The translations under genes and the position numbers were made by a program. Of a stretch of 64,000 bases of DNA, positions 29,770 through 50,363 are shown in pieces. The stretch is taken from positions 9,336-73,335 of the forward strand of contig JBBQAO010000009.1 in the NCBI GenBank assembly GCA_038316355.1, written 5' to 3'. The notes below the pieces were generated by a model, which was given only the letters and a program-made list of their open reading frames with translations, was not told the DNA's origin and ran no database searches. This DNA comes from Burkholderiales bacterium. GTDB taxonomy: Bacteria > Pseudomonadota > Gammaproteobacteria > Burkholderiales > SG8-41. Within the stretch, counting starts at the first letter, position 1, and each line of letters begins with the position of its first letter.

Positions 29770-30306
29770 ATGAATATCGACGCTCCCGGATTGGCAGACG
29801 AAGCTCTCTATATCGCCTCGCCGAATTGCGACGAGCGGCCGCCCGATACAGCCATCGAGTTGCTGGTCATCCACAACATCTGCCTGCCGCCGGGTGCATT
29901 CGGCGGCACCGCGGTCGCGGACCTGTTCCTGAACCGGCTGGATCCAGCGGCACATCCGTATTTCGCCACCATCGCCGGCTTGCAGGTATCCGCGCATTTT
30001 TTCATCCGCCGCGACGGCGCCCTGCTGCAGTTCGTACCCTGCGCGCTGCGCGCCTGGCATGCCGGACAATCGTTGTGGTGCGGGCGCGGGCGCTGCAATG
30101 ATTATTCGATCGGCATCGAGCTCGAAGGCACGGATGACATGGCGTTCAGTGCCGCCCAGTACGACCGGCTGGGGGTGCTCGCCCGCGCCCTCCATGATCG
30201 ATATCCGATCACCGCCAGCGTCGGGCACTCCGACATTGCGCCGGGCCGCAAGACCGATCCTGGACCGCATTTTGACTGGCCGCGTTATCGGGCCAGCCTG
30301 CGGTAG
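29770..30306 (+). CDS. ampD: 1,6-anhydro-N-acetylmuramyl-L-alanine amidase
   Basis: Amidase_2 fold with SPNCDERP, LLVIHNICLPPG, AWHAG, GHSDIAPGRKTDPG. Confidence 0.9.
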   Translation: MNIDAPGLADEALYIASPNCDERPPDTAIELLVIHNICLPPGAFGGTAVADLFLNRLDPAAHPYFATIAGLQVSAHFFIRRDGALLQFVPCALRAWHAGQSLWCGRGRCNDYSIGIELEGTDDMAFSAAQYDRLGVLARALHDRYPITASVGHSDIAPGRKTDPGPHFDWPRYRASLR

Positions 30307-30503: not shown

Positions 30504-30532
30504 TTGCGGATTCAAAACACGGCCACTAGAAT
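30504..30532 (+). promoter_or_regulatory. candidate sigma-70 promoter of nrdAB (-35 TTGCGG, 17-bp spacer, -10 TAGAAT)
   Basis: Hexamers at 30504-30509 and 30527-30532. This would give a 5' UTR of roughly 105-110 nt before ATG 30647. Confidence 0.5.
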
Positions 30533-30569
30533 TGGTCGAAATTAATGCGCGAACCACAACATATAGTGG
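30523..30569 (+). promoter_or_regulatory. tandem NrdR-box-like operator (box 1 overlapping -10, box 2 CCACAACATATAGTGG)
   Basis: Box 2 (30554-30569) fits the recalled NrdR consensus acaCwAtATaTwGtgt well. Box 1 (CCACTAGAATTGG, 30523-30535) fits more weakly. The box centres are about 32 bp apart, the usual tandem spacing. Confidence 0.55.
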
Positions 30570-30646: not shown

Positions 30647-33508
30647 ATGCAAGTCGCCGCAGAATCCACCCAATCCCGTGTTTTTCCGCAAGCCACCCCC
30701 GCCGAGGAGGCTGCGCGGGAGGCCCTGTATGCCCAATACAAAATCATCCGCCGCAATGGCTCAGTGGTGGGTTTTGAGCCGGCGAAAATCGCCATTGCCC
30801 TGACCAAGGCTTTCATCGCCGTCAACGGCGGTCAGGGTGCGGCTTCGGCGCGGGTGCGTGAGCAGGTCGCGGCGTTGACCGACTGCGTGGTTGTCGCGCT
30901 GATGCGGCGCCAGCCTTCGGGCGGCACTTTCCATATCGAGGACATCCAGGACCAGGTCGAACTCGCACTGATGCGCATGGGCGAGCACCACGTGGCCCGC
31001 TCCTACGTGCTCTATCGCGAGGAGCGCACCAGGGAACGCGCGCGTCAGCGCGAAGCGCAGCCTGCGGCGACGGCACAGCGCGAGTCGGTGGTCAACGTCA
31101 CCGAAGGCGGCGTGAAGCGGCCGCTCGACCTTCCGCAGATTACCGCTCTGGTGCAAAGCGCCTGTGCCGGACTTGGCCACGAAGTCAGCACGCAGCCCAT
31201 TCTCGATGCAATGTTCCGTGACCTCTACGAAGGCGTGCCCATCGACGAAGTGCGCAAATCACTGATCCTGGCCGCGCGCGGGCTGATCGAACAGGACCCG
31301 GGCTACAGCTACGTGACCGCCCGCCTGCTGATGCACACGATGCGTCTGGAAACCCTGGGGGAAGAGGTGACGCAGGAGGATATGGCAACGCGTTATGCCG
31401 CCTACCTGCCGGAATTCATCAAGAAGGGCATCGCCGCTGAACGGCTGGACGAACGCCTGGGTGATTACGATATGAAGGCGCTGGGCGCCGCACTCGACGC
31501 GAAACGCGACCTCAAGTTCACCTATCTCGGCCTGCAGATTCTCTACGACCGCTATTTCCTGCACATCGAAGGCCGGCGCATTGAGCTGCCGCAGGTGTTT
31601 TTCATGCGCGTGGCGATGGGACTTGCATTGAACGAACCGAAAAGCCAGCGTGAAGTGCGTGCGATCGAGTTCTACAACGTGTTGTCCAGCTTCGATCTGA
31701 TGAGCTCGACCCCGACGCTGTTCAATTCCGGCACGCGCCGCTCGCAGCTCGCCAGCTGCTACCTGACCACGGTTGCCGACGACCTCGACGGCATCTACGA
31801 GGCGATCAAGGAAAACGCGATGCTGCAGAAGTATGCCGGCGGCATCGGCAACGACTGGACCCCCGTGCGCGCGCTCGGCGCCTACATCAAGGGCACCAAC
31901 GGCAAGTCGCAGGGCGTTGTGCCGTTCCTGAAGGTGGTCAACGATACCGCCGTTGCAGTGAACCAGGGCGGAAAACGCAAAGGCGCGGTGTGTTCGTACC
32001 TCGAAACCTGGCATCTCGACATCGAGGAATTCCTCGAATTGCGCAAGAACACCGGCGATGACCGCCGGCGCACCCATGACATGAACACTTCGAACTGGAT
32101 TCCGGATATGTTCATGAAGCGTGTGATGGAGGGTGGCGAATGGACGCTGTTCTCACCCTCGGACGTTCCGGACCTGCACGAGAAATTCGGCAAGGCTTTT
32201 GAGAAAGCCTATATCGAATACGAGGCGCAGTGCACCCGCGGCGAGTTGAAACTCTACAAGAAGGTTCCAGCCAACCAGCTGTGGCGAAAAATGCTGACCA
32301 TGCTGTTCGAGACCGGGCATCCGTGGATCACATTCAAGGATCCCTGCAACCTGCGCTCGCCGCAGCAGCACGTCGGCGTCGTGCACAGCTCCAACCTGTG
32401 CACCGAAATCACGCTGAACACCGGTCCCGACGAAATCGCTGTTTGCAATCTGGCGTCGGTCAACATGCCGGCGCACCTGGATTTGTCGACCGGCCTGCTC
32501 GACATGGAGAAGCTGAAGCGTACGGTCGGCACCGGCATGCGCATGCTCGACAACGTGATCGATCTCAACTTCTACAACGTCAACAAGGCGCGCAACTCCA
32601 ACTTCAAGCACCGTCCGGTCGGGCTCGGCATCATGGGTTTCCAGGACTGCCTGCACATGTTGCGTATTCCCTACGGTTCGCCGGCAGCAGTGGAGTTCGC
32701 CGATCGTTCGATGGAACAGGTGACCTACACCGCATACTCGGCTTCGTCGGACCTGGCGGAAGAACGCGGCCCGTATTCGACGTTCAAGGGCTCGCTGTGG
32801 GATCGCGGCATTCTGCCGCTGGACTCGCTGAAGGTGCTGGCTGACGAGCGCGGCGGATACGTCGAATGCGACATGTCCACCAGGCTGGACTGGGACAGCC
32901 TGCGCAGCCGCATCCAGCGCGTCGGTATCCGCAATTCGAACTGCATTGCGATTGCGCCGACGGCAACCATTGCCAACATCACTGGACTGTCGCAGTGCAT
33001 CGAGCCGACCTACCAGAACCTCTACGTCAAATCCAACCTGTCGGGCGAGTTCACCGTCGTCAACGAATTCCTCGTGCGCGACCTGAAAAAACTCAACCTG
33101 TGGGACGAGGTGATGATCGCCGATTTGAAATACTTCGACGGCTCGCTGGCCAGGATCGATCGTGTGCCGCCGGACGTGCGCAGCCTCTACGCCACGGCCT
33201 TCGAGATGGATGCGAGCTGGCTGGTGGAATGCGCGGCGCGCCGGCAGAAATGGATCGACCAGTCGCAGTCGCTGAACATTTACATGGCGGGTGCGTCGGG
33301 CAAGAAGCTGGATGACACCTACAAACTCGCCTGGATTCGCGGCCTGAAAACGACCTACTACCTGCGCACGCTGGGCGCGACTTCCACCGAGAAGTCGACA
33401 TCGAAGGTGGGCCAGCTCAATGCCGTGACGTCGGATGGCGGCGTGAACGGGGAAGAGCAGCCCAAGGCATGTTCGATCCTCGACCCGGAATGTGAGGCCT
33501 GCCAGTAG
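30647..33508 (+). CDS. nrdA: ribonucleoside-diphosphate reductase (class Ia) alpha subunit
   Basis: N-terminal ATP-cone region, catalytic SSNLCTEITL and a C-terminal Cys pair (CSILDPECEACQ). ATG 30647 is preceded by AAGGAG. The track start at 30545 lies in the operator region. Confidence 0.97.
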   Translation: MQVAAESTQSRVFPQATPAEEAAREALYAQYKIIRRNGSVVGFEPAKIAIALTKAFIAVNGGQGAASARVREQVAALTDCVVVALMRRQPSGGTFHIEDIQDQVELALMRMGEHHVARSYVLYREERTRERARQREAQPAATAQRESVVNVTEGGVKRPLDLPQITALVQSACAGLGHEVSTQPILDAMFRDLYEGVPIDEVRKSLILAARGLIEQDPGYSYVTARLLMHTMRLETLGEEVTQEDMATRYAAYLPEFIKKGIAAERLDERLGDYDMKALGAALDAKRDLKFTYLGLQILYDRYFLHIEGRRIELPQVFFMRVAMGLALNEPKSQREVRAIEFYNVLSSFDLMSSTPTLFNSGTRRSQLASCYLTTVADDLDGIYEAIKENAMLQKYAGGIGNDWTPVRALGAYIKGTNGKSQGVVPFLKVVNDTAVAVNQGGKRKGAVCSYLETWHLDIEEFLELRKNTGDDRRRTHDMNTSNWIPDMFMKRVMEGGEWTLFSPSDVPDLHEKFGKAFEKAYIEYEAQCTRGELKLYKKVPANQLWRKMLTMLFETGHPWITFKDPCNLRSPQQHVGVVHSSNLCTEITLNTGPDEIAVCNLASVNMPAHLDLSTGLLDMEKLKRTVGTGMRMLDNVIDLNFYNVNKARNSNFKHRPVGLGIMGFQDCLHMLRIPYGSPAAVEFADRSMEQVTYTAYSASSDLAEERGPYSTFKGSLWDRGILPLDSLKVLADERGGYVECDMSTRLDWDSLRSRIQRVGIRNSNCIAIAPTATIANITGLSQCIEPTYQNLYVKSNLSGEFTVVNEFLVRDLKKLNLWDEVMIADLKYFDGSLARIDRVPPDVRSLYATAFEMDASWLVECAARRQKWIDQSQSLNIYMAGASGKKLDDTYKLAWIRGLKTTYYLRTLGATSTEKSTSKVGQLNAVTSDGGVNGEEQPKACSILDPECEACQ

Positions 33509-33698: not shown

Positions 33699-34829
33699 AT
33701 GTTGCAATTTGAAGAACCGGGTGTGGCCGGACTGGCAAAACAGCCCGTGATGGCAGATCGCGCGCCCTCGCATGCCCCCTCGCAAAATCATCCCGCTGCT
33801 GAAGAAGAGTTACGGCGCGTCAATGTCGCCGACAAACGCATCATCAACGGCCGTACTGACGTCAACCAGCTGGTGCCGTTCAAATACAAATGGGCCTGGG
33901 ACAAGTACCTCTCGGCCTGTGCCAATCACTGGATGCCGCAGGAAATCCAGATGAGCCGTGACATCGAGCTGTGGAAAAACCCCAATGGCCTGACCGAAGA
34001 CGAGCGTCGCATCGTCAAGCGCAATCTCGGGTTTTTTGTCACCGCTGACTCACTGGCAGCGAACAACATCGTGCTCGGCACCTACCGCCATATCACTGCG
34101 CCGGAATGCCGCCAGTACCTCCTGCGCCAGGCTTTTGAAGAGGCGATCCATACCCACGCCTACCAGTACATCGTGGAAAGCCTGGGGCTGAACGAAAGTG
34201 AAATTTTCAACGCCTACCACGAGGTTTCGTCGATCCGCGACAAGGATGAGTTCCTGATCCCGTTCATCGACGTGCTGACCGATCCCACCTTCAAGACCGG
34301 TACGCCGGAAGCCGACCAGAAGCTGCTGAAAAGCCTGATCGTGTTTGCCTGCCTGATGGAAGGCCTGTTCTTCTACGTCGGTTTTGCGCAGATCCTCGCG
34401 CTGGGCCGGCAGAACAAGATGACCGGTGCCGCCGAGCAGTACCAGTACATCCTGCGCGACGAATCCATGCACTGCAATTTCGGCATCGACCTGATCAACA
34501 CCATCAAGATGGAGAATCCTCACCTGTGGACCACGGAGTTCCGCGAAGAACTGCGCGAGTTGTTCCACAAGGGTGTGGAGCTCGAATACAAATATGCCGA
34601 AGACACCATGCCACGCGGTGTGCTTGGTCTGAATGCTGCGATGTTCAAGGAATACCTGCGCTTCATCGCCAACCGCCGTGCCCAGCAGATCGGGCTGGAA
34701 GTGCTGTTTGAGGGCGCGACCAATCCCTTCCCGTGGATGGCGGAAATGATCGACCTTAAAAAAGAACGCAACTTTTTTGAAACCCGCGTCATCGAGTACC
34801 AGACCGGGGGCGCGTTGTCCTGGGATTGA
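33699..34829 (+). CDS. nrdB: ribonucleoside-diphosphate reductase beta subunit
   Basis: Diiron ligands EEAIHTHAY and [14 protein letters not shown] lies upstream of the ATG. Confidence 0.97.
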
Positions 34830-48220: not shown

Positions 48221-48409
48221 ATGACGGCCGGTCTCGACTCCAAACCGGAAAAACCGCCGGCCCCCGAACCCTGGGAGTGCTGCCAGAGCGGTTGCGAGCC
48301 CTGTGTTTATGATCGGTATTGGGAAGCGCTCACTGACTACGAAGCCGCGCTCCGGACCTGGGAGGCACGCCAGGCCGAAGCGCTGCCTGATCCCCAAGAC
48401 GAACTATAA
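48221..48409 (+). CDS. small oxidoreductase-like-domain protein (Cys-rich)
   Basis: 62 aa with the motif PEPWECCQSGCEPCVYDRYWEAL. It starts 4 nt after the anti-sigma stop. Confidence 0.6.
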   Translation: MTAGLDSKPEKPPAPEPWECCQSGCEPCVYDRYWEALTDYEAALRTWEARQAEALPDPQDEL

Positions 48410-48587
48410 GTGATTGTTTTTATTAATTTTTTAAACAAGAGTTGGTGCCATTCTGCGCTTGTGTCCGGCAGCAATGAACTCTTTGCCGCAGTGCAGTTCA
48501 AATCCCTGCCATTTGCCCGGTTTAACCCCGGGTGCGACGCCTGAAAATACTTAAATTCTTTTATAAACAAAGAGTTATATTTTTGTT

Positions 48588-48599
48588 GCGTTGCAACGC
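48588..48599. promoter_or_regulatory. perfect 12-bp palindrome GCGTTGCAACGC in the AT-rich spacer
   Basis: Verified by eye. It lies about 60 bp upstream of the candidate -35 at 48661. Confidence 0.3.
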
Positions 48600-48660
48600 G
48601 TGTTGCCGTTACACTCCGCCCCCGGCCGTTTTCCCGACTTGATGAAAATCGGTGACAGGG

Positions 48661-48689
48661 TTGCGGTCCATGGCTTGAACACCTAGAAT
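48661..48689 (+). promoter_or_regulatory. candidate sigma-70 promoter with hexamers identical to the nrdA promoter (TTGCGG-17-TAGAAT)
   Basis: TTGCGG at 48661-48666 and TAGAAT at 48684-48689, with a 17-bp spacer, about 145 nt upstream of the SLT gene ATG. Confidence 0.5.
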
Positions 48690-48726
48690 TGGCCAGTTTT
48701 TTTGAGTAGCCCACAACCTGTAGTGG
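48680..48726 (+). promoter_or_regulatory. second tandem NrdR-box-like operator
   Basis: CACCTAGAATTGG (48680-48692) and CCACAACCTGTAGTGG (48711-48726). An 18-bp gap separates TAGAATTGG from CCACAAC, the same as at nrdA. Confidence 0.45.
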
Positions 48727-48833
48727 TTTTAGGCTGACCGCAGTCTTAAGGAGACACCGTTACCGTAGCGAGGTAACACCAGCACAAAGGCGTCCCGCCC
48801 GAGGCAGGCGCCACTCCCCAAAGGAGGTTTTGC

Positions 48834-49601
48834 ATGTACGCAAAATCGATTTCAGAAATACCCCCCGAAATATCCACCCAAGTTCGGGCCGCGGCAGCGC
48901 CGCACTGGACCCGCAAGATGGTCACCCTGGCGATGCTGATTGCCAGTTTCTCCGCCCTGGCCCTGCTGCTCCACGAACGTTACGGCGCCCACTGGCTGCA
49001 ATCCGCATATGCCGCCATGGAGAGCGAAGCCAAGGCCGTGTCCGATCGCGTGCTGCCGCAGCCCGCGCCGGCCGTGCACCCGGACGCCGCCCGGCATGAG
49101 GCGTTGGCCGAGTTCCTGGCCAAGCGCTACAAGGTATCCCAGGACGTGACGCTGGAGTTCGTGCAGATCGCCCATGCCGAAGCTGGCCAGGTGAATCTGG
49201 ACCCACTGCTGATCATGGCGGTGATTGCCGTCGAGTCGCGCTATAACCCGATCGCTGAAAGCGGCGTCGGCGCCAAGGGCCTGATGCAGATCATCCCGAA
49301 ATTCCATGGCGACAAGCTGGCTGAGTTTGGCGGCGAAAAAGCGGTGTTTGACCCGGAATCCAACATCCGCGTCGGCACCCGCATCCTTCGCGAATATCTG
49401 TCCCGCACTGGCAACCTGAGCATTGCGCTGCAGATGTATGCCGGCGCCCTGGGCGACGATAACGACACCTATACCAACAAGGTGTTGGGCGAAAAACAGC
49501 GCCTGCAGCGCGTCGTCGCCGCATTTGCCGAACCCGCGCCGGTACGGATGGCGCCGCAGCGCGTCGCCTCCCGGCGCATCGATTCCCTCCTCGGCGAATA
49601 A
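48834..49601 (+). CDS. membrane-anchored lytic transglycosylase (SLT domain)
   Basis: N-terminal TM segment (MVTLAMLIASFSALALLL) and an SLT catalytic region IMAVIAVESRYNPIAESGVGAKGLMQIIP. AAGGAGG lies upstream of the ATG. Confidence 0.85.
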   Translation: MYAKSISEIPPEISTQVRAAAAPHWTRKMVTLAMLIASFSALALLLHERYGAHWLQSAYAAMESEAKAVSDRVLPQPAPAVHPDAARHEALAEFLAKRYKVSQDVTLEFVQIAHAEAGQVNLDPLLIMAVIAVESRYNPIAESGVGAKGLMQIIPKFHGDKLAEFGGEKAVFDPESNIRVGTRILREYLSRTGNLSIALQMYAGALGDDNDTYTNKVLGEKQRLQRVVAAFAEPAPVRMAPQRVASRRIDSLLGE

Positions 49602-49628: not shown

Positions 49629-50000
49629 GTGGCCGCCATCCGTATTTCCTGGCCGACAGGATCGGTGATTGCCGATCTCCAACCGGGCGTCACTGTCGAT
49701 AAGCTGCTGGCGATCCTGCCCTGTGTATCCAGCGTCAGCACCTGGGGGGAGGAGGTTTATTTCTCCCTGCCGGTAGCCGCCACGCTGGAACCCGGTGCGC
49801 GGCAGGTGGTGGATCCCGGCACGGTGTGTTTCTGGGTGGACGGCAGTGCGCTGGCGCTGCCCTGGGGGCGAACCCCCGCATCCCGCGGTGATGAATGCCG
49901 GCTGGTCTGTGCCTGCAACGTGCTGGGCCGCATCCGGGGTGACCCGGCGGTGCTGAAATCCGCCCGCGACGGCGAAACGATCCGCGTCGAAGCGCTGTAA
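49629..50000 (+). CDS. cyclophilin-like fold protein (DUF3830-like)
   Basis: STWGEEVYFSLPVAATLEPGARQVVDPGTVCFW...NVLGRIRGD pattern recalled from cyclophilin-like family proteins. GTG start. Confidence 0.6.
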   Translation: MAAIRISWPTGSVIADLQPGVTVDKLLAILPCVSSVSTWGEEVYFSLPVAATLEPGARQVVDPGTVCFWVDGSALALPWGRTPASRGDECRLVCACNVLGRIRGDPAVLKSARDGETIRVEAL

Positions 50001-50023: not shown

Positions 50024-50079
50024 CGTAACGCAGGGCTCGTAATACAGGGTTCGTAACGCAGTGCTCGTAATACAGGGGG
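50024..50079 (+). repeat. 2 x 28-bp (4 x 14-bp) tandem repeat upstream of the PhaM-like gene
   Basis: CGTAACGCAGGGCTCGTAATACAGGGTT / CGTAACGCAGTGCTCGTAATACAGGGGG. The array ends 9 nt before ATG 50088. Confidence 0.85.
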
Positions 50080-50087
50080 AAGCGACC

Positions 50088-50363
50088 ATGGCCGATCAAG
50101 ACGTACCCAAAGACTTTTTTGAATTCATGCAGAAAATGTGGAACCCGATGGGATTTCCCATGCCGGGCATGATCGCGCCGACGATGAATGTCGAGGATCT
50201 GCAGAAAAAAATCGCTGAGCTGAAGGCGGTCGAAACCTGGCTGACCATGAACACCGGTTTTGTGCAGATGACCGTCAAGACGCTGGAGATGCAGAAGGCC
50301 GGACTGGAGAGTCTGCAGTCTGCGGGCAAGGCCGCAGCGGGTGAAAAAAGGGCGCCGGGTTAA
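50088..50363 (+). CDS. PhaM-like N-terminal-domain protein (short, no Lys-rich tail)
   Basis: 91 aa. FMQKMWNPMGFPMPGM...VEDLQKKIAELKAVETWLTMN...LEMQKAGLESLQS resembles my recollection of the PhaM N-terminal domain. Confidence 0.55.
   Translation: MADQDVPKDFFEFMQKMWNPMGFPMPGMIAPTMNVEDLQKKIAELKAVETWLTMNTGFVQMTVKTLEMQKAGLESLQSAGKAAAGEKRAPG

Follow-up and report, generated by a model that had tools for sequence, protein, structure and literature searches.

A predicted two-box NrdR operator upstream of a lytic transglycosylase gene in Burkholderiales

A 64,000-nt stretch of DNA from a Burkholderiales bacterium (GCA_038316355.1, contig JBBQAO010000009.1, positions 9,336 to 73,335 of the forward strand), called the window below, carries the ribonucleotide reductase genes nrdA and nrdB and, downstream on the same strand, a gene for a membrane-anchored lytic transglycosylase with an SLT domain (the SLT gene, 48834-49601). 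A 47-bp element upstream of the SLT gene, at 48680-48726, is near-identical to the NrdR operator of nrdAB. We put at about 0.7 the probability that this element is a functional NrdR operator that represses the transglycosylase operon from its proximal promoter. About three quarters of bacterial genomes encode NrdR, which is regarded in the field as specific to ribonucleotide reductase genes. Judged from the sequence, the operator is ordinary in form, and the new point is its presence at an unexpected, non-reductase gene. The organism is represented by metagenome bins, and the assembly comprises 3.96 Mb in 171 contigs, with a G+C content of 60.6%.

The SLT gene and nrdAB share a predicted promoter and operator arrangement

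The pattern TTGCGG-17-TAGAATTGG-18-CCACAACNTNTAGTGG occurs twice in the genome, upstream of nrdAB and 108 bp upstream of the SLT gene. Exact pattern searches at both loci confirmed that the arrangement of the nrdA promoter is copied in front of the SLT gene, as the original prediction had claimed. The promoter part, TTGCGG-N17-TAGAATTGG, was located at 30504-30535 and 48661-48692 and was matched in none of 100 shuffles; both it and the distal box are found at these two loci only in the entire genome. The two loci agree in the -35 hexamer, in the -10 hexamer with the three bases that follow it, and in both gap lengths (17 and 18 nt), and the distal palindromes, CCACAACATATAGTGG at 30554-30569 and CCACAACCTGTAGTGG at 48711-48726, are identical at 14 of 16 positions. 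The intervening spacers are unrelated, with 2 of 17 and 6 of 18 positions identical by direct reading, on which the alignment agrees.

The distal palindrome had been taken for the NrdR box and the -10 with its three following bases for a separate promoter element. The first assignment stands, but the second does not: TAGAATTGG is the core of NrdR box 1, and the SLT site is therefore a complete two-box operator. Its proximal promoter (P2), predicted from sequence and read on the plus strand, has its -35 hexamer TTGCGG at 48661-48666, the same as that of nrdA, and its -10 hexamer TAGAAT at 48684-48689, 17 nt further on and inside box 1 (CACCTAGAATTGGCCA, 48680-48695). A linker of 15 bp (GTTTTTTTGAGTAGC, 48696-48710), which also represents the predicted first bases of the transcript, separates box 1 from box 2 (CCACAACCTGTAGTGG). 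In the reference copy (nrdAB promoter and operator, 30504-30569, plus strand), the -35 hexamer at 30504-30509 is followed by box 1 (CCACTAGAATTGGTCG, 30523-30538), a 15-bp linker and box 2 (CCACAACATATAGTGG). A generic promoter scan made no call at TTGCGG-17-TAGAAT in front of the SLT gene, because TTGCGG matches TTGACA at three of six positions.

We compared nrdA promoters of 29 genomes of the genus and of 12 genomes that belong to other families of the order. A common layout was seen in most, namely in the 29 genus genomes and about 11 of the others; it consists of the -35, a box 1 of the form c(C/T)ACTAGAATTAGTgg that contains the -10, a linker of 15 to 16 bp, and a box 2 of the form CCACWAyATrTWGTGG.

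The site conforms to the published binding rules of NrdR

According to a mutational study of 2026, NrdR requires both boxes, as one box alone is not bound, and in each of them C4 and G13, 8 bp apart, together with A6 and T11 (PMC13584703). Between C4 and G13 the A/T content has to be about 63% or more, and the linker has to measure 15-16 bp (or 26-27 bp) but may have any sequence (PMC13584703). The central AT of the box is dispensable, and the A8C change is tolerated (PMC13584703). In line with every sequence rule, the SLT site has two 16-bp boxes, C4, A6, T11 and G13 in each, and a 15-bp linker. The A/T content between C4 and G13 is 6/8 in box 1 and 5/8 (62.5%) in box 2, and relatives with CCTATAG reach 6/8. 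The central dinucleotide of box 2, CT, carries the A8C change, of the type tolerated in experiments.

A canonical nrdR gene is present in the genome (L002, 1354-1815) in a glyA-nrdR-ribD arrangement, and its product has an ATP-cone domain match. The protein begins with MNCPFCKSDETQVIDSR and also has CVSC, which gives the CxxC...CxxC zinc ribbon, and it possesses the DNA-contact residues D15 and R17. Asp15 and Arg17 of NrdR contact C4 and G13 (PMC13584703).

Control of both nrdAB and the SLT gene by a different DNA-binding protein with a similar palindrome seems very improbable to us. We found nothing specific in its favor, and it is at odds with the match of motif, spacing and critical positions to the experimentally defined NrdR site, with the occurrence of the same boxes on nrdA promoters throughout the order, and with the presence of the canonical nrdR gene. 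The NrdR proteins of Escherichia coli and Streptomyces coelicolor bind heterologous operators in vitro.

The closest described counterparts are the NrdR operators of E. coli nrdAB, nrdHIEF and nrdDG and of S. coelicolor nrdAB and nrdRJ (Rodionov and Gelfand 2005; PMC9110341; PMC12176259; PMC13584703). The SLT site shares with them two partly palindromic 16-bp boxes with C4, A6, T11 and G13, an A/T-rich center, a 15-bp linker, the position of box 1 over the (here predicted) -10, and an nrdR gene in the genome. Unlike them, it precedes genes for a lytic transglycosylase and a cyclophilin-like protein, not for a reductase; the center of its box 2 is CT instead of AT, and its linker is conserved within the genus.

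The only published non-reductase target of NrdR is topA of Pseudomonas aeruginosa (PMC4409342). Its mechanism has been questioned by specialists, as it involves one box while NrdR needs two (PMC12051234). The SLT site resembles the topA site in preceding a non-reductase gene (PMC4409342), but whereas topA has a single box at which NrdR apparently activates, the operator predicted at the SLT gene has both boxes, is placed so that it would repress, and is conserved across genera. A full-text search of the literature yielded no paper linking NrdR to a transglycosylase, and no transglycosylase is listed under NrdR in the supplement of a Proteobacteria regulon survey. Both results agree with the earlier remark that no description of lytic transglycosylases as members of an NrdR regulon was known.

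The two sites stand out in the genome

To score sites genome-wide, a matrix was trained on 29 distinct nrdA operators from other genomes, this genome's own operator being excluded. Scanning both strands of the 3.96 Mb returned two sites above 12 bits, nrdA at 53.6 and the SLT site at 31.2 bits. The genome-wide search for NrdR boxes that the original prediction had proposed thus identified the SLT site as the sole site besides nrdA above this value. A scan based on the binding rules found seven box pairs, compared with about 29 in Markov simulations, and among the seven only nrdA and the SLT site have CAC...GTG arms. The other five (C14, C27, C68, C131 and C150), which lack these arms and score below 12 bits, were treated as chance occurrences. 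Chance as the origin of the SLT site itself was rejected, given that no shuffle matched, that the patterns are unique genome-wide to the two loci, and that 19 bits separate it from the next matrix site.

NrdR-type operators were thus found in this genome at nrdAB and the transglycosylase gene only. There is a second, class II-like ribonucleotide reductase large-chain gene outside the window (contig C8, 11997-13475, minus strand), and the genome has no class III reductase.

The boxes are conserved while their surroundings diverge

We searched 36 other genomes of the genus for orthologues of the SLT gene and found them in 33, with proteins 66 to 90% identical. All 33 genus genomes examined have the box pair equally far from the start codon; a single one is borderline, owing to an A/T-poor box 2. 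In three of the genus genomes the G of box 1 is one position further out, a change that is tolerated when it affects a single box. Within the genus, mean pairwise identity was 0.94 for the -35, 0.91 for box 1, 0.94 for the linker and 0.92 for box 2, and it was 0.51 for the promoter spacer, 0.50 for the upstream flank and 0.62 for the downstream flank. Genus g28 retains the pair with one critical mismatch in box 1.

A comparison over greater distances was made between the window sequence and five further lineages (G348, L199, L200, L201 and one of the two G309 copies), whose proteins are 45 to 60% identical. Across these six lineages, pairwise identity was 0.82 for box 1 and 0.80 for box 2, compared with 0.35 for the linker, 0.37 for the promoter spacer and 0.23 to 0.32 for the flanks. 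L199, L200, L201 and the G309 copy keep TTGC-17-TAGAAT, both boxes and the 15-bp spacing in surroundings that are near random, and G348 keeps the same arrangement, but with one critical mismatch in box 1. No change was seen in the TTGC of the -35 among the six lineages, in the C-TAGAATT core of box 1 across lineages, or in the -10 TAGAAT at any of the 67 orthologous loci that carry the site. The sequence of the linker is kept only in the genus and its closest relative, whereas its length of 15 bp is kept in every lineage with the pair.

The persistence of the boxes while linker, spacer and flanks were randomized indicates selection on the protein-binding elements, as had been proposed from the two loci of the window. 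A recent duplication of the nrdA promoter was rejected on account of the unrelated spacers and of the conservation of the site among species with proteins only 45 to 90% identical.

Box 2 was also informative. Among 23 operator variants, C4, A6 and G13 of this box never change, and T11 is changed only in the mis-registered site of G030. The variable positions are 2, 3, 5, 7, 9, 10 and 12. Positions 2 and 3, which would form part of a stem, change without compensation, with CCCC, CTAC or ACTC in place of CCAC. The combination of uncompensated arm changes and fixed critical positions is the signature of recognition by NrdR and not of an RNA hairpin, and the latter interpretation of box 2 was rejected because its arms change without compensation.

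Similar pairs were detected in a distant group. In family f7 (six genomes), canonical pairs precede four of five orthologues, as in G042 (CCACAATTAGTAGCCA-15-CTACTACATATTGGGG). These boxes lie downstream of a different promoter, in another layout, and resemble the boxes of f7's own nrdA. In a maximum-likelihood tree of the proteins, the genes with the pair fall into two supported clades, to which the G309 copy is added. The tree forces a minimum of four gains or losses, and clustering this strong was reached in none of 500 label shuffles. The operator is lineage-restricted.

The original prediction had raised the conservation of the boxes upstream of orthologous SLT genes. This held in the 33 genus genomes, in the further lineages and in f7, but not in about 85 other orthologues of the order. 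Predicted NrdR control of the SLT gene is nevertheless well supported by the comparative evidence as a whole.

Evidence against the operator and alternative explanations

Several observations weigh against a functional NrdR operator. The majority of SLT orthologues in the order have no such site, and the approximately 85 orthologues without the pair are spread over families f14, f18, f36, f43, f61, f10, f5 and others and include sister genus g26. In sister genus g27, a palindrome that resembles box 2 lies 23-25 bp from box 1 and does not fit NrdR, and the palindrome of one g27 genome has a 16-nt loop, which does not fit NrdR either. G030, the most divergent member of the genus, has an 18-bp linker. 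In the SLT site itself, box 2 is at the published lower limit of A/T content (5/8), and box 1, with CACC and not CCAC as its left arm, therefore reaches only 11 bits on the matrix derived from nrdA. No NrdR pair was found upstream of the class II-like reductase gene on contig C8, even with relaxed rules, which implies that control by NrdR is not universal among the reductase genes, nor obviously needed for the transglycosylase. Lastly, the linker GTTTTTTTGAGTAGC is as conserved within the genus (0.94) as the boxes, unlike what NrdR requires. As NrdR ignores the sequence of the linker, some other constraint must act on this stretch.

It may be that an nrdA-type promoter was captured and kept because it is a good sigma-70 promoter, and that the likeness to NrdR boxes was merely inherited with it, any binding of NrdR there being weak or physiologically irrelevant. 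In its favor, the -35 and -10 match those of nrdA exactly, box 1 would be constrained anyway by the -10 inside it and reaches only 11 bits on the matrix, and sister genera g26 and g27 keep the TTGC-17-TAGAAT promoter although they have lost the canonical pair. Box 2, however, is located downstream of the -10 and has no role in the promoter, yet its critical positions, C4, A6, G13 and, outside G030, T11, have been kept together with the 15-bp spacing in lineages whose surrounding sequence is randomized. Moreover, the pairs of f7 are not within an nrdA-like promoter. We therefore consider such a promoter relic unlikely.

Another explanation places the function in the RNA or in initiation. The segment from +1 to approximately +35, composed of the T7 run, GAGTAGCC and the palindrome, would form a leader helix or mediate reiterative transcription, and the likeness to an NrdR site would be coincidental. 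This would account for the identity of the linker within the genus (0.94), and the predicted leader folds better than shuffled sequences (z = -3.1). Its 5' end can pair with GGAGAC, and UAGCC with GGCUG; in this helix, 93% of the cells of the tested structure pair. The remainder of the leader is clearly structured, and the g27 palindrome persists as a hairpin with a loop of variable length. However, covariation in the 5' helix did not exceed that of shuffled controls, and the arms of box 2 change uncompensated while the positions critical for NrdR are fixed. L199 to L201 and the G309 copy keep the boxes and their spacing but neither the T run nor the leader motifs, and the identity with nrdA would be unaccounted for. 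An RNA-level element in place of an operator thus appears quite improbable. The leader helix and reiterative transcription sensitive to uridine triphosphate (UTP) are nevertheless possible reasons for the conservation of the linker in addition to an NrdR operator. The run of seven T residues, which starts from about +2 of the predicted transcript, in the linker, recalls the UTP-sensitive reiterative transcription at E. coli codBA and upp.

Proposed mechanism and implications

From these comparisons we infer binding by NrdR, repression, the transcription start, and a coupling of the deoxynucleoside triphosphate (dNTP) pool, or of replication, to peptidoglycan cleavage. The mechanism that we propose for the NrdR operator is carried over from the characterized E. 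coli and S. coelicolor systems. With deoxyadenosine triphosphate (dATP) bound together with adenosine triphosphate (ATP), an NrdR tetramer would bind both boxes. Since box 1 overlaps the -10 and box 2 covers approximately +15 to +30, RNA polymerase would be excluded from the proximal promoter, and transcripts that come from upstream promoters may also be obstructed by the boxes. A fall of the dATP/ATP ratio would change the oligomeric state of NrdR, which would leave the DNA, and nrdAB and the transglycosylase gene would be de-repressed jointly.

In a broader and more tentative interpretation, NrdR is not confined to reductases in these bacteria but serves as a dATP/ATP-sensing switch that directly couples the status of DNA precursors to peptidoglycan cleavage. 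We regard this as possible, although short of probable. The presence of the operator in two well-separated clades with different layouts, together with the location of the SLT gene next to nrdAB elsewhere, suggests that the coupling has been repeatedly maintained or re-created. The data suggest that several uncultured freshwater Burkholderiales tie wall remodeling to the dNTP pool. If so, the NrdR regulon would extend to the cell envelope, and there would be a concrete molecular link from the dNTP pool, and hence replication status, to peptidoglycan remodeling. The coupling would then act as a replication-to-envelope checkpoint, on top of the control that an extracytoplasmic function (ECF) sigma factor and leader RNA may exert on the same gene. 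The case would also show how a regulon grows, by the copying of a promoter-operator module or by new evolution.

The transglycosylase and the cyclophilin-like gene

The SLT gene (48834-49601, plus strand) codes for a family 1 lytic transglycosylase of 255 amino acids with a single-pass membrane anchor at its N terminus. Residues 115-212 match the Pfam SLT domain (PF01464, E = 8.9e-19), and the catalytic E-S motif (AVESRYNP) and the GLMQI motif are present. The cyclophilin-like gene that follows (49629-50000, plus strand) matches Cyclophil_like (PF04126). The Pfam matches bear out the earlier description of both genes.

The nearest solved relatives of the SLT protein are Slt70, MltC, EmtA and a phage tape-measure protein (E of approximately 1e-6). 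Like Slt70, MltC and EmtA/MltE of E. coli and LtgA, LtgB, LtgC and LtgF of Burkholderia, it has an SLT_1 catalytic domain with the E-S motif. Unlike those family 1 enzymes, it is short and has an N-terminal transmembrane anchor but no lipobox or superhelical domain. Its relationship to the solved enzymes is distant, and it has no characterized orthologue. LtgG of Burkholderia was considered as an orthologue and rejected, as it is an MltA-type enzyme.

The stop codon of the SLT gene and the cyclophilin-like gene are separated by 27 nt. The order of the two genes is kept in most genomes of the genus and in L087 and L199 to L201, lineages whose operator overlaps the -10. The cyclophilin-like gene is probably co-transcribed with the SLT gene, and the same operator would then probably govern both.

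Leader and upstream control elements

The predicted 5' leader of the SLT mRNA (48696-48833, plus strand; fold z-score of -3.1) contains conserved blocks, namely GGAGACA, a hairpin and a Shine-Dalgarno sequence. The hairpin, GUUACC-GUAGCGA-GGUAAC (48759-48777, plus strand), is found in families f1, f18 and f52. It shows compensatory changes at two pairs, UA to CG in two sequences and AU to GC in three. A second hairpin, UUUUGC-AUGUAC-GCAAAA (48828-48845, plus strand), encloses the start codon and is kept with different loops in other genera and families. Between 48750 and 48845 the elements follow one another in the order GGAGA, GUYRCC-(6-7 nt)-GGYRAC hairpin, G+C-rich hairpin, Shine-Dalgarno sequence and start-codon hairpin. 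This order recurs in at least three families and in L063, L089, L091, L094, L100, L107, L109, L115, L117, L126 and L208. A search against Rfam found only tRNA to reach the gathering threshold in the window, and the best sub-threshold match in 48400-48900 had an E value of 8.3. We regard this leader as a candidate for a new cis-regulatory RNA in this family of transglycosylases.

Two further elements lie upstream of the proximal promoter. The first is GAACTC-N16-TTCAAA (48476-48502, plus strand), a motif resembling an ECF/RpoE-type promoter, located approximately 358 nt upstream of the SLT start codon and directly 3' of a module of genes for an ECF sigma factor, an anti-sigma factor and a small Cys protein. 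It is the single occurrence in the window; 21 of 30 genus genomes have it at the corresponding location, and most of the others have a near-variant. The GTTCAAATCC motif is its -10 part. The transglycosylase gene may thus be a target of the neighboring ECF sigma factor.

The second element is an AT-rich block (48540-48625) between the ECF motif and the NrdR promoter. It harbors a palindrome conserved in the genus, TTGCGTTGCAACGCG (48586-48600), with the core GCGTTGCAACGC (48588-48599); in relatives the block has the palindrome ATTGTTTAAAAACAAT. Counterparts in other families have the form TGYTGCA-N2-3-TGCARCA and come immediately after a TTGACA-17-TAnAAT promoter in front of the SLT orthologue. 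Besides the window, these observations come from L087, L199 to L201, L091, L094, L099, L103, L106 and L110. The palindromes may represent an order-wide operator or the 5' stem-loop of a distal promoter.

With a structured leader and candidate promoters upstream, NrdR is probably one of several inputs on the SLT gene and probably not its sole control.

The public RNA data consisted of metatranscriptome contigs from relatives (90 to 95% identical) and gave no transcription start. One riverine contig of a relative (run X23, record 1) includes 58 nt upstream of 48677, with the -35, and extends to 48778. Such a contig could come from read-through that began at a promoter further upstream or from DNA contaminating the RNA library, and it is uninformative on the transcription start.

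Genomic context of nrdAB and the SLT gene

In the window, nrdA (30647-33508) and nrdB (33699-34829), both on the plus strand, were identified by Pfam matches (PF02867, PF00317, PF03477 and PF00268). Several families have the SLT gene downstream of nrdAB and in the same orientation, at distances of approximately 1 kb after nrdB in f14 and f43, approximately 7 kb in f7 and 3 to 18 kb in the family of this bacterium. In one possible history, the lineages in which insertions separated the SLT gene from nrdAB may have gained or kept an NrdR operator of its own.

In f43 and f14, the gene between nrdB and the transglycosylase gene codes for a small Lys/Ala-rich, histone H1-like protein (L092, 469-822; L110, 704-1000), with KKKAAKK repeats and the C-terminal sequence AWPF(A/P)PTGSRP. 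In the window, a PhaM-like gene without the Lys-rich tail (50061-50363) comes after the SLT and cyclophilin-like genes.

The gene for 1,6-anhydro-N-acetylmuramyl-L-alanine amidase, ampD (29770-30306), lies directly 5' of nrdA in the window, as it does in many Burkholderiales genomes. AmpD processes the anhydromuropeptides that lytic transglycosylases release, and ampD is a second cell-wall-recycling gene linked to nrdAB.

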